IMG/VR virus record: IMGVR_UViG_2671180609_000027
Strand: one strand, 5' to 3'
Length of the DNA stretch: 8,582 nucleotides
Source of the DNA: a virus
Lineage: Duplodnaviria; Heunggongvirae; Uroviricota; Caudoviricetes
A program made the translations under genes and the position numbers. The notes below the pieces were generated by a model. The model ran no database searches. It was not told the DNA's origin and was given only the letters and a program-made list of their open reading frames with translations. Below, piece after piece: positions 2,951 through 7,164 of this stretch. Position 1 is the stretch's first letter. Each line of letters begins with the position of its first letter.

Positions 2951-3362
2951 TCAAACAAAACCAGCCGCCTTCCGGCGCTCGTATTCCTGTTTCAGTAATT
3001 CAATTGGCGTTGGCCCTTGCGGGCACTTCGGCGATGCGAGTTGTCTCCGGATCGGGGGAATACTCATCCCGTTACCAACTTGCTTTGCCCATTTCGTCAG
3101 TTGCCGTTCTGCAAGTCGTTTTAACTCACCTTCCGTCATCTGCCGCTCAATCCCTCTGTCACGCATCTCGAGGCAAATGTGGTACAGCACCGGCTGTGGC
3201 CACGGGTATTTATCACTCCCGTCGTACCGCCAGGATTCATTCCTCCAGCGACGGTACTCCTCCATCACGGCATCCACCGTCAGGCCAAATGGATTTGCCC
3301 CGCTCTCCGAAATCAACGCCACAAACTCAGCCAGGTCCGGAGGCCACGTTTCACCCGCCCGG
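2951..3362 (-). CDS. C-terminal coding fragment abutting the assembly gap (136 codons before the stop at 2951-2953); either the C-terminus of the YdaU-like replication protein or a separate gene whose start is lost in the gap
   Basis: Open frame from the gap edge to the stop; sequence is protein-like (PDLAEFVALISESGANPFGLTVDAVMEEYRRWRNESWRYDG...). Frame relation across the gap cannot be determined. Confidence 0.45.
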
Positions 3363-3460
3363 NNNNNNNNNNNNNNNNNNNNNNNNNNNNNNNNNNNNNN
3401 NNNNNNNNNNNNNNNNNNNNNNNNNNNNNNNNNNNNNNNNNNNNNNNNNNNNNNNNNNNN
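3363..3460. other. Assembly gap: run of 98 N
   Basis: Literal n characters in the sequence; true length and content unknown. Confidence 0.99.
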
Positions 3461-4142
3461 CAGGCTCAGGCAGAGCCATACCCCACAATGCAGCCCGCTG
3501 TCGAAAATCCAGCGACGGCCGCCAGACACCAGTCATCGGAAATTTCCCGATCGGTTCGCTCAGGCCATCCGGGTATTCAGGTTCTGCTGTCTGCAACGGC
3601 GCGCCATTCGACTCACTGGCTGGAGCACTCTCGCGCATGCGCGCGTTATGTGTGGGGTTTAATTCTTTATCTGTATCTGTATCTGTCGTGACTTGTCGTG
3701 ACATATGCGTGACGCGTCGTGACTCATCGTGACAATCAGTGTTCTGCTCCCGCAGTCTTTCCCGCTCCCGCTGCGCTCTCTTGCGCTCTGCCGGGGATTT
3801 TGCGGTTTGCGAAACATTACCGTTATCCTCCTTCATCACCTGGCGTTTTTCCCATCCGGAAATAAGATCGCCATCCAGAACTCGCCCCTGCATTGCATGC
3901 AAAATTGAATCAATCACGTCTTCCGTCACATCAAGCGCACTTGCTAAATCTTCCGTCGTGACATCAATGTGACCACGTAGTGACTCGCCGTGACATTTCG
4001 TGACATTTCGTGACGCACTCACCAGAAGGTGGATATACACCGCCATCACTGTTGCGATTGGCTGTCCTGAGACCCTGGCAATGGTTCGCCATTTGGGATC
4101 ATTTGGCATGTCATGCCACAATCTGAGCCAGGCATTAGCCAT
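3461..4142 (-). CDS. Phage replication initiation/replisome-organizer-like protein (DUF1376/YdaU-like), N-terminal portion truncated by the assembly gap
   Basis: N-terminus MANAWLRLWHDMPNDPKWRTIARVSGQPIATVMAVYIHLL matches the W-x-[RK]-[LW]-x-[HD]-x(3-5)-D-P-K ... I/V-Y-I-x-L-L pattern I recall for phage replisome-organizer/DUF1376 N-domains. Position right after ydaS-ydaT matches ydaU in Rac. ATG at 4142 with SD GAGGTG (alternative GTG at 4148). Iteron clusters lie inside it. Confidence 0.6.
3671..3734. repeat. Iteron cluster 1: CTGTAT x3 (3671-3686) followed by five CGTGAC copies starting at 3687, 3697, 3708, 3718 and 3728 (10-11 bp spacing)
   Basis: Counted directly in the sequence; helical-repeat phasing; lies inside the replication-protein gene, as lambda ori lies inside gene O. 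Confidence 0.6.
3951..4016. repeat. Iteron cluster 2: six phased copies of CGTGAC or one-mismatch variants (starts 3957, 3968, 3979, 3989, 3999, 4009; includes CGTGACATTT x2)
   Basis: Counted directly; 10-11 bp periodicity; same core as cluster 1, about 225 bp away within the same gene. Confidence 0.6.
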
Positions 4143-4210
4143 ACTCACCTCATCTGATACCGAACTTTACCCTCGAACATCCGGAAGAAATCCGGCATGA
4201 ATATTGTTGG

Positions 4211-4636
4211 TCAATGCACGACAACAGCATTACCAGGCTGACCCCCACTGTTAGTCAGGGTGCCCCAGGCGATCGCCGCTGCGACAAAATCATCCACATC
4301 TTTCACCAGCCGATCCCTCCGTTCGACGATCTCACGGTAATATTCAGAGCTGTGACTGCGCATACGGGCCACCAGCAGAGGCGGCATTGCCTTTTCGATC
4401 GCCGGTAACAGAGCCTGCATTTTTTCAACAGCATCAGGGGTGTCTTTATCCAGCCAACGGAAAATTTTCTGGGTATTACGAGCCAGGGCTTCCGGATGGC
4501 TGTCGTCGTACAGTTCCGGGAACGTCATCCCCAGTTCGAAATAAGTCCGGGCTATTTCAGCTGCAGGAACTTTCTCACCATCAGGATATGCCCAGGCATT
4601 CATCGCCATGCGGATGTGCTCATGTTTGATTTTCAT
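4211..4636 (-). CDS. ydaT: YdaT-like protein (cII-like regulator of Rac-type prophages; reported toxic when overexpressed), 141 aa
   Basis: Begins MKIKHEHI, which I recall as the YdaT N-terminus; located 13 nt downstream of ydaS as in Rac; ends ...VVVH; ATG at 4636. Confidence 0.7.
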   Translation of the reverse strand: MKIKHEHIRMAMNAWAYPDGEKVPAAEIARTYFELGMTFPELYDDSHPEALARNTQKIFRWLDKDTPDAVEKMQALLPAIEKAMPPLLVARMRSHSSEYYREIVERRDRLVKDVDDFVAAAIAWGTLTNSGGQPGNAVVVH

Positions 4637-4943
4637 GAATCATTTGCCTCTTGATGCTTCGGGTATGATCGTTTTCGTCATTTGGTTGCTTCATCGACAT
4701 ATTCTGCGAATAACATGACGAGCGTCGTAAGTATGTCCAATCAACATCAGGACGAAGTTCTTCACACAGGACACCACCTTTTGTTGCTCGTTCAATCGCA
4801 GGACATCTCTCAGCAGGCAACTGACGTACACCTTTGATCCATTGATTTACGCTTGGAGGAGATACACCTAAAAGCCTAGCCATTGCTGATTGCCCACCGA
4901 CAACAGCACAAGCTCGTTTGAATGAATAGTTATCTTTTTTCAT
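4620..4943 (-). CDS. ydaS: YdaS-like Cro-type HTH regulator, about 107 aa from the ATG at 4943
   Basis: Segment KRACAVVGGQSAMARLLGVSPPSVNQWIKGVRQLPAERCPAIERAT closely matches what I recall of E. coli Rac YdaS. ATG at 4943 with SD GGAG about 8 nt upstream; the track ORF extends 7 codons further, to 4964. Divergent from the repressor gene. Confidence 0.85.
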   Translation of the reverse strand: MKKDNYSFKRACAVVGGQSAMARLLGVSPPSVNQWIKGVRQLPAERCPAIERATKGGVLCEELRPDVDWTYLRRSSCYSQNMSMKQPNDENDHTRSIKRQMIHENQT

Positions 4944-4964
4944 CGAATGAACTCCAAAAAACAC

Positions 4965-5067
4965 ACAATAATATTAGGCTTAGCCTAATGCAATTGTCAA
5001 TAGGCTATGCCTAACGCTTCGAGAGTAGGTATTGCCTAATGCGATGCGCATAGGAGACTATTAAGCA
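4965..5067. promoter_or_regulatory. Divergent immunity-region control region: leftward promoter for ydaS (-35 TTGACA at 5000-4995, 18-bp spacer, -10 TAATAT at 4976-4971) overlapped by operator palindromes TAGGC-TTA-GCCTA (4975-4987) and TAGGC-TAT-GCCTA (5001-5013); a degenerate site CCTA-N12-TAGG containing palindrome ATGCGCAT lies at 5035-5054 next to the racR RBS AGGAGA (5052-5057)
   Basis: Hexamers and palindromes read directly from the sequence; operators overlap the -10 and abut the -35 of the ydaS promoter as expected for repressor control. The rightward racR promoter could not be placed confidently. Confidence 0.6.
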
Positions 5068-5544
5068 ATGCTTAGTGGTAAAGACTTAGGCCGAGCGATA
5101 GAGCAGGCCATTAACAAAAAAATTGCATCAGGAGCCGTCAAATCAAAGGCGGAAATCGCACGTCATTTCAAAGTCCAACCACCATCAATCCATGACTGGA
5201 TTAAGAAAGGTTCGATAAGTAAAGACAAACTTCCAGAACTATGGCGTTTCTTTTCTGATGTGGTTGGTCCAGAGCATTGGGGGCTTAACGAATACCCCAT
5301 ACCAACCCCATCCACTTCAGATACAAAAAGTGAACTTTTAGACATAAACAGCCTTTATCAAGCCGCCTCTGATGAAAAAAGAGCAATTGTGGCTTTCCTC
5401 TTATCTGGAAATGCTACGGAGCCTAGTTGGGTTGATCATGACGTTCGTGCCTACATTGCCGCAATGGAAATGAAGGTAGCTAACTATCTGAAAAATCAAG
5501 AATCAAAACGGAAAAGCCAGAACATCACCAAGACAGGAACTTAA
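5068..5544 (+). CDS. racR: RacR-like prophage repressor (CI functional analogue), 158 aa
   Basis: Length and position (divergent from ydaS) match Rac racR. HTH segment SKAEIARHFKVQPPSIHDWIKKGSIS resembles the YdaS HTH. RBS AGGAGA 10 nt upstream of ATG 5068. Confidence 0.75.
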   Translation: MLSGKDLGRAIEQAINKKIASGAVKSKAEIARHFKVQPPSIHDWIKKGSISKDKLPELWRFFSDVVGPEHWGLNEYPIPTPSTSDTKSELLDINSLYQAASDEKRAIVAFLLSGNATEPSWVDHDVRAYIAAMEMKVANYLKNQESKRKSQNITKTGT

Positions 5545-6726: not shown

Positions 6727-7164
6727 GTGGTAAAAAGCAGGCACACAACACGAAAGCACACGGCGAGGGACACCATTAAATGGTGGCTTAAGCAATCACG
6801 CGAAGCGCAATCTGCCATTATGACCGATGAAATCCCGTTAGATGATGCACTGTTACAATTGCGGGAATTTATCGACGAAAACTCCGGTGAATTTTTTGTT
6901 CAGGTCTGGGGAAATGGAGCCAACTTCGACAACACGATTTTGCGCCGTTCATACGAACGGCAGGGGATCCCCTGCCCGTGGCGTTACTACAACGATCGCG
7001 ATGTACGCACAATCGTTGAGCTGGGGAAAGCCATAGACTTCGATGCCAGAACGGCTATTCCATTCGAAGGTGAGCGCCATAATGCACTTGATGACGCCCG
7101 TTACCAGGCAAAATACGTTTCAGTTATCTGGCAAAAACTGATCCCGAGTCAGGCTGATTTTTAA
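6727..7164 (+). pseudogene. 5'-truncated DEDDh-type (DnaQ-like) 3'-5' exonuclease remnant; conserved part starts near 6820
   Basis: Contains Exo II-like VWGNGANFDNTIL and Exo III-like ERHNALDDARYQAKY (H-x4-D) motifs but no Exo I (D-x-E) motif. The frame opens only at 6682 after a TAA at 6679-6681 and has no ATG before 6820 (track start is GTG 6727); the expected ~60 N-terminal residues are absent. Confidence 0.6.

Follow-up and report, generated by a model that had tools for sequence, protein, structure and literature searches.

Two arrays of phased iterons inside a prophage initiator gene as a probable phage replication origin

In this work, we analysed an 8,582-nucleotide (nt) stretch of DNA from the virus record IMGVR_UViG_2671180609_000027 (Caudoviricetes), hereafter referred to as the window, and focused on its replication initiator gene. 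The 5' part of this gene, coding for residues 1–227 of 345, occupies positions 3461–4142 of the minus strand and corresponds to the coding sequence WP_001262323.1 annotated in NZ_CP033605.1. Written into it are two arrays of a short repeat, GTCACG on the coding strand and CGTGAC on the plus strand, and judging from comparison with related genes, these arrays very probably constitute the replication origin of the phage. The first of them (linker array; 3687–3733, minus strand) is made of five GTCACG units separated by 10, 10, 11 and 10 base pairs (bp) and encodes residues 137–153 of the inter-domain linker. The second one (N-terminal array; 3957–4014, minus strand) is made of six units, four of them exact and two carrying one mismatch, and encodes residues 43–62.

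The arrays stand out clearly from the background of the window. Exact CGTGAC hexamers occur ten times, against 3.35 ± 1.66 expected, and none of the 200 dinucleotide shuffles reached this number. Nine of the ten belong to the plus strand and are found at 3687, 3697, 3708, 3718 and 3728 and at 3957, 3989, 3999 and 4009; reading the sequence adds the one-mismatch units TGTGAC at 3968 and AGTGAC at 3979, which gives the group at 3957–4014 six units with a spacing of 11, 11, 10, 10 and 10 bp. A stretch of 60 nt with five copies of one hexamer on the same strand never appeared in 300 first-order Markov simulations, where the maximum was four copies, seen in two simulations. The unit can be written on the coding strand as (T)GTCACG(A/C), 6–7 bp long, repeated once per ~10 bp and always on one strand. 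Tandem Repeats Finder reported period-10 repeats at 3684–3733 and 3989–4014, together with a period-6 repeat (TCTGTA, 3.8 copies) at 3664–3686. A preliminary description of this DNA, made from the sequence alone, had listed eleven exact or one-mismatch copies in two clusters (its clusters 1 and 2 being our linker and N-terminal arrays) at a spacing of 10–11 bp, a hexanucleotide tandem beside cluster 1, and a distance of about 225 bp between the clusters. All of this holds: we counted nine exact and two variant copies, the tandem is the period-6 repeat just mentioned, and the gap amounts to 224 bp. Furthermore, the bipartite layout is conserved in relatives and is no accident of one prophage.

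Comparison of homologous genes shows that both same-strand arrays are maintained as DNA within the coding sequence. GTCACG units start in codon phases 2, 0, 1 and 0 in the N-terminal array and in phases 1, 2, 0, 2 and 0 in the linker array. Since all three phases are used, the repeated DNA encodes a non-repeated peptide. This rules out an amino acid repeat as the source of the hexamers, which are not simply V-T codons. We also compared synonymous positions between pairs of homologues from E. coli, Aeromonas phage pAEv1818, Pseudomonas phage phita81A and two metagenomic contigs, with a G+C content of the locus from 47 to 62%. The hexamer mask for this test came from one E. coli sequence only, and the codons scored were those having the third base in an N-terminal-array hexamer. 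In every pair, synonymous codons inside the hexamers were identical in 8 cases out of 8, as opposed to 34–47% elsewhere in the domain (p = 0.0007–0.005 per pair). The overall nucleotide identity of the same homologues was 92–100% inside the hexamers and 57–69% elsewhere. Conservation of the hexamer beyond what the amino acids demand was the check proposed together with the first prediction, and its outcome speaks for the latter. Array spacers carry almost no information, and the sixth base of the unit, G, which was outside the search pattern for units, is conserved in 81% of cases in the N-terminal array and in 98% in the linker array.

The second line of evidence comes from the family of the N-terminal domain, which spans prophages of E. 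coli O157 and other E. coli, phages of Aeromonas, Pseudomonas and Ralstonia, and many metagenomes. Both arrays were found at matching gene positions in the first 13 homologous genes, coming from E. coli, Aeromonas and Pseudomonas phages, and repeats with a spacing of ~10 bp were present at both places in 89 of the 94 unique homologues. In 70 of these 89 genes, the two arrays have a word of at least five nucleotides in common; codon-shuffled controls gave 0–1 such genes, and permuted pairing of the arrays gave 33 on average and 47 at most. At least five words are in use across the family, namely GTCACG, (C)GAACGC, (TG)TAACGC, GTGACG and GCAACGC, and the two main classes, GTCACG and GAACGC, are never paired with each other in one gene. 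Thus, one word serves both arrays in L095–L097 and L263 ((C)GAACGC), in L098 (TGTAACGC), in L161 and L175 (GTGACG), and in Ralstonia phage Firinga (GCAACGC, at nt 130/140/151/161 and 401/411/421/431). In TL-2011b, the 18-nt element CAGCGTTACAAAAGGAGT is found at both places, being translated in different frames (SVTKGV vs. ALQKEL). On a neighbour-joining tree of the domain, reconstructed with the array-coding loop masked, GTCACG appears in two separate groups, in one of which the array has moved to the other side of a conserved Arg-Gly pair, and GTGACG and TAACGC are scattered over the tree. Such a topology suggests several independent word switches, although the tree is short and poorly resolved. 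Other parts of the module are variable among relatives: either a P-like loader or a DnaB-like helicase may be encoded, the C-terminus of the initiator may be DnaT-like, LvrA-like or of another kind, and ydaT may be present or absent. The N-terminal domain is the only constant companion of the arrays.

Directly adjoining the linker array is a hexanucleotide repeat, ACAGATACAGATACAGATAAAGAATTAAA (3655–3686, minus strand), AT-rich and, on the coding strand, purine-rich, which encodes TDTDTDKELN and which we propose as the DNA-unwinding element. The AT maximum of the gene, calculated for 30-mers, falls at 3657–3687 (73% vs. 46% on average). Whatever the iteron class, the linker array is followed by a (GATAMA)n tract, which is read as D-K/D-T repeats in the protein and differs in length among relatives. 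In the viral contigs L106, L107, L120, L125 and L128, the tract has grown to 10–15 or more copies, encoding D-T/D-S runs of 20–30 residues; such differences in length may be viewed as microsatellite-like variation of the putative unwinding element. The same place is a junction between two modules of the protein. As tblastn searches demonstrated, residues 1–~150/195 and residues ~148–345 recombine independently, with nucleotide breakpoints in or just past the hexamer-repeat tract: only the former part is common with phages Evi and Tritos, and only the latter with YdaU of Rac-SA53 and some others. Where the exchangeable C-terminal module begins, just past the AT-rich tract, there is a GC-rich palindrome, CGCGCATGCGCGCG (3632–3645), which by its position calls to mind the palindrome on the right side of the lambda origin. 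This GC-rich palindrome is confined to relatives having this C-terminal module and is absent along with it when the C-terminus is another one; hence, it does not belong to the origin in general.

The complete initiator is a protein of 345 amino acids, annotated as a 'DnaT-like ssDNA-binding domain-containing protein', in which a linker connects a replisome-organizer-like N-terminal domain with a DnaT-like C-terminus. The PHROG replication-initiation families phrog_1408 and phrog_3729 match it along its length. Pfam DnaT (PF17948) matches residues 201–267 (E = 4.5e-17; 62 bits vs. a cut-off of 25), and the score against NCBIfam DnaT is 91.8 bits, below the 201-bit cut-off, so the initiator is a domain relative of DnaT and not DnaT itself. 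The Phage_rep_O profile was not matched by the N-terminal domain in the Pfam scan, as far as the library copy includes this model, which places the initiator outside the O family, although it would work like O. Pfam Phage_rep_org_N (SPP1 gp38 type) was not matched by the initiator either. Assignment to SPP1-type replisome organizers is weakly supported by the PHROG matches to 'replisome organizer' phrog_4880 (E = 3.4e-4) and 'DnaD-like helicase loader' phrog_10469 (E = 4.8e-8), both weak, and by the NCBI name 'phage replisome organizer' carried by close homologues. In the AlphaFold model, with a mean predicted local distance difference test score (pLDDT) of 79, residues 63–96 form a helix-helix-hairpin, with a helix pair resembling a helix-turn-helix (63–70 and 74–84) and a wing. 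Foldseek matches of this model in the PDB were mostly to winged-helix proteins (CAP, MarR, GntR and the RepA_N initiators 4pta/5kbj), all with E > 0.1 and a template-modelling (TM) score ≤ 0.38. No solved relative of the N-terminal domain was found by sequence, and the fold matches are weak; a winged helix-turn-helix is a plausible fold for it on the evidence of the model. Residues 43–62, encoded by the N-terminal array, make up in the model the end of a helix (29–45) and a low-confidence loop or hairpin just before the helix-turn-helix.

DNA-level conservation, covariation of the arrays, the adjoining AT-richest stretch and the position at the module junction are all in line with the initial proposal of a lambdoid-type origin inside the initiator gene. 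We consider it likely that the region is the prophage origin, located within the gene of its own initiator, where the linker array and the tract form the core and the N-terminal array is an auxiliary platform. According to this scenario, the N-terminal domain would bind each unit as a monomer, and the bound initiators would line up along one face of the helix. In the core origin (3655–3733), oligomerisation of the initiator at the linker array would distort and open the adjoining (GATAMA)n tract; then, the DnaT-like C-terminal domain and the P-like loader would recruit DnaB of the host, in the manner of O and P at the lambda origin. The N-terminal array would hold extra initiator ~160–270 bp away, probably cooperating with the core array through looping or wrapping of the DNA between them, and it may also capture protein made in cis. 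The gene would tolerate this array because the codons concerned belong to a surface loop that is variable.

The two arrays are probably not equivalent. Across the family, the N-terminal array has from 2 to 6 units and the linker array from 3 to 8. Most relatives have four units in the N-terminal array, and the six units of the window are due to a 21-nt (7-residue) in-frame insertion, equal to two units. Moreover, five lineages have kept the linker array and the tract and have no N-terminal array. The variable copy number and these five lineages indicate that the N-terminal array is probably auxiliary. The stretch encoding it is the most variable part of an otherwise strongly conserved N-terminal domain. 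We also looked for a fixed distance or helical phasing between the arrays as a sign of a rigid loop, and rejected both: the distance ranges from 158 to 271 bp, and no phasing is seen (resultant length ~0.27 for periods of 10–11 bp, n = 24).

Two further features of this part of the gene should be mentioned. Approximately 30 nt downstream of the N-terminal array, within codons for L-D-V-T-E, there is an inverted iteron core (GTGAC on the coding strand, 3925–3929), and the equivalent site is the full inverted hexamer CGTGAC in L005, L014, L099 and L100. Other inverted copies were noted at nt 165, 195 and 271 of L261; there are several CGTTGC in Firinga, and TL-2011b has a GTAACGC/GCGTTAC pair. 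Such inverted copies could be dimer-binding operators, as in iteron plasmids, or could simply reflect amino acid conservation. The other feature is the Arg-Gly pair in the loop formed by residues 43–62, which is nearly invariant across the family, with a register relative to the iterons that differs by class. As the pair is kept in the five lineages devoid of the N-terminal array, the constraint seems to act on the protein, and the pair may contact DNA. It is tempting to go further and suppose that the loop itself contacts DNA, so that the binding site and its reader share nucleotides and a change of the word alters the protein that reads it; we regard this idea as rather doubtful. If it were true, new origin specificities could arise in a self-referential way, which would account for the repeated emergence of five or more words, and the shared code of site and reader would keep each initiator with the genome it comes from when several prophages reside together.

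As for the genomic context, the E. coli O157:H7 record NZ_CP033605.1 is 100% identical to the window, which comes from a lambdoid prophage adjoining potC. Related modules were found in 698 of 5,426 complete E. coli genomes, at no more than four places per genome, and the initiator region was matched at 2–4 places per O157:H7 chromosome (three in the best record). The order on the minus strand is as follows: a pR-like promoter, cro-like ydaS, ydaT at the cII position, the initiator gene, a lambda-P-like loader gene and a DUF1627 gene; racR is divergent. The promoter (TTGACA-18-TAATAT; 4971–5000, minus strand), which is a consensus match only, precedes ydaS and is the sole promoter-like match in the scanned region 3461–5100. 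Read-through from it would cover ydaT and the initiator gene, both arrays included. We also considered whether a promoter or terminator inside the gene could explain the N-terminal array, and rejected this, since terminator-like matches coincide with the GC palindrome and lie on the antisense strand, and the promoter match was limited to 4971–5000.

The 3' part of the lambda-P-like helicase-loader gene is located at 2951–3362 (minus strand), as identified by Pfam Phage_lambda_P (E = 2.7e-15), by phrog_109 (P-like helicase loader) and by the annotation of the record. The complete 'replication protein P' (L001 4191–4652) has 153 amino acids, and its gene overlaps the end of the initiator gene; it covers only positions 74–235 of the 236-position profile, being without the N-terminal third of lambda P. 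Between the two gene fragments of the window there is a run of N at 3363–3460, in which 98 N stand for 398 nt of the complete prophage sequence (L001 4603–5000), masking residues 228–345 of the initiator, with the greater part of the DnaT-like domain among them, as well as the beginning of the P-like gene. In databases, many homologues are likewise 'partial' at contig ends; both these cases and the run of N probably arise because assemblies break at the multi-copy module. Between the immunity region and xis/int, a 3'-5' exonuclease gene (6727–7164; L001 8303–8704) is annotated as a pseudogene without the N-terminus, which is consistent with a partly decayed prophage.

What the N-terminal array does is the point where other explanations have to be weighed, since it may either enhance replication, by looping or by capturing newly made protein in cis, or restrain it, by acting as a transcription roadblock, by titration or as a fork barrier. 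One may accept the linker array and the tract as the origin and attribute negative control to the N-terminal array, which would then bring about autorepression as a roadblock, or titrate or handcuff the initiator. Bound ~130 nt into its own gene, the initiator would block RNA polymerase coming from the pR-like promoter, with repression of the downstream genes as well. Such a role would suit the location of the array in the 5' part of the gene, which is transcribed and has the sole promoter-like site upstream, its dispensability in five lineages, its copy number of 2 to 6, and the lack of a fixed phase or distance relative to the core array. It would also have parallels in iteron plasmids, where a second iteron set for control is common, as the control iterons of P1, F and R6K exemplify. 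On the other hand, copy-number limitation would be of little use to lytic phage replication, and the array is retained in the great majority of lineages, including apparently virulent and environmental phages. Hence, we hold negative control to be unlikely, though by no means negligible. A still different idea, very unlikely in our view, would be that the initiator bound to the N-terminal array stalls the leftward fork, making replication unidirectional or switching it from the theta to the rolling-circle mode. All units do lie on one side of the AT-rich tract in one orientation, and a role of this kind was proposed for SPP1 gp38 bound at oriR (PMC6316719). Nevertheless, this is an analogy only: SPP1 oriR is ~13 kb and not ~200 bp away.

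Finally, the repeats might not be protein-binding DNA at all, acting instead as RNA or representing neutral slippage-prone microsatellites homogenised by gene conversion between the arrays. Both arrays are always transcribed in one way, so that conservation alone does not tell DNA from mRNA, and the changes in copy number do resemble slippage. Yet if the repeats were neutral, their synonymous sites would not have held from Escherichia to Aeromonas and Pseudomonas, and new words would not have arisen at both places in several lineages; moreover, a period of ~10 bp next to an AT-rich tract, right where the domains join, is how a DNA origin is built. No known RNA or tRNA was found, and there was no match to Rfam families. 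Overall, this last explanation seems hardly credible to us.

Several points weigh against the reading of the region as an origin with a core and an auxiliary array, and we would like to gather them here. Only conservation and covariation were observed, and binding, opening and loading are inferred from them. The variable and unphased distance between the arrays lends no support to a rigid looped complex. When all 345 residues were scanned against Pfam (E ≤ 1), PF17948 was the sole match, leaving the N-terminal half blank; the predicted winged helix relies on a model with a pLDDT of 79 and on weak PDB matches, all with E > 0.1; and the N-terminal domain was not found in any model phage. The neighbour-joining tree by which the independence of word switches was judged has a low resolution, and the homologues are related, so that counts of sequences overstate the number of independent events. 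Lastly, no obvious arrays were seen in a distant homologue with 36% identity, from a Microcystis phage.

An origin inside the initiator gene is textbook knowledge for lambda, and in this respect our basic reading is ordinary. The lambda origin consists of iterons and an AT-rich tract in the middle of gene O, and the Shiga toxin (Stx) phages 933W and P27 have six-iteron origins, in which two extra iterons lengthen the protein by 13 residues (PMC7466680). Likewise, the candidate described here is located in the initiator gene, at the junction between an N-terminal DNA-binding part and a C-terminal loader-recruiting part; an AT-rich tract comes after the repeats proposed as initiator sites, a gene for a P-type loader lies downstream, and the gene order (pR, cro-like gene, gene at the cII position, initiator, loader) is the same. 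Extra iterons lengthen the protein here too, by 7 residues instead of 13. There are differences as well. In lambda, dimers of O bind iterons that are ~19 bp long and internally symmetric, whereas the units of our arrays are direct repeats of 6–7 bp, one per helical turn; the C-terminus of our initiator is DnaT-like; and lambda has one array, whereas a second one is found here inside the sequence coding for the DNA-binding domain.

Another parallel is provided by SPP1, whose oriL in gene 38 contains direct repeats along with an AT-rich unwinding element, with a second set of initiator sites at oriR, a separate origin-like region ~13 kb away in an intergenic segment (PMC6316719). Direct repeats together with an AT-rich element within the initiator's own gene, as well as a second set of sites elsewhere, are common to both systems, and from the NCBI names and weak PHROG matches mentioned above, our initiator may be, like gp38, a protein of the 'replisome organizer' type. 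Unlike in SPP1, however, the second array is only ~160–270 bp away, shares a gene with the first and lacks a separate AT-rich tract. Two separated repeat clusters on one replicon are also known from P1 (incC/incA), F (ori2/incC), R6K and satellite phage P4 (ori/crr), where one cluster is located at the unwinding site and the other acts as an enhancer or control element through initiator-mediated pairing. There, the protein families are different, and the sets are found at the flanks of the rep gene or outside it, rather than being written in the codons of the initiator's DNA-binding domain.

The closest resemblance in the C-terminal module is to the Rac prophage. Residues 148–345 are 82% identical to YdaU of Rac-SA53, the GATACAGATACAGAT tract and the junction sequence are in common, and so is the racR-ydaS-ydaT neighbourhood. 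The label 'ydaU-like', given to the gene at first, is therefore right for residues ~148–345; it does not extend to the N-terminal domain, which belongs to a different family, that of YdaU being DUF1376 with other repeats. In Rac-SA53 ydaU (L264 733–1803), TGTTCAA is found at nt 149, 360 and 426 and, inverted, at nt 451, followed by GATACAGATACAGAT; in another gene for a DUF1376 initiator (L265 2660–3487), ACAAACGTT is found at gene nt 143/154 and 358/380, followed by (GATACA)x6. According to PMC3945230 and to Potrykus et al. 2000 (cited in PMC11014345), the Rac prophage has an active origin, oriJ. The bipartite design may thus reach a second family of N-terminal domains (DUF1376) and the region of oriJ.

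We would also like to comment on fusions of the N-terminal domain with an HNH nuclease (Pfam HNH, HNH_5), which were found in L265 (2100–2660), L266 (536–1096) and L100 (1501–2046). In these, the linker and the C-terminus are replaced, and four GTCACG units are kept at gene nt 132–163. In L265 and L266, the fusion is located directly upstream of a DUF1376 initiator with a different repeat word, and L095 has a free-standing HNH gene at the equivalent position. The fusion protein could be an origin-directed nuclease or a homing element/endonuclease.

Our literature search, which covered GTCACG iterons, oriJ/ydaU and bipartite phage origins, found no description of the origin of this family, with an in-silico mention in the review by Weigel and Seitz (2006) being possible. 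A second set of initiator sites at a distance was reported for SPP1 (PMC6316719). What appears to be undescribed is a second array placed in the codons of the initiator's own DNA-binding domain, with a word that switches in step with that of the core. As such, a second iteron set is nothing new, being already known from plasmids and P4. The novelty lies in a widespread and experimentally untouched initiator family having its second array over the sequence that codes for the DNA-binding domain.

For E. coli O157, our results imply that co-resident prophages may have a common iteron specificity, with cross-activation or interference being possible upon induction: given up to 3–4 copies of the module per genome, one induced prophage could fire or disturb its neighbours through common iterons. 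The arrays also make a simple rule by which origins could be annotated in hundreds of prophages. Finally, a protein code and a phased code of putative binding sites share the same bases here in all three reading frames, which makes the family a natural system for studying both the co-evolution of initiator and origin specificities and the tolerance of overlapping codes.

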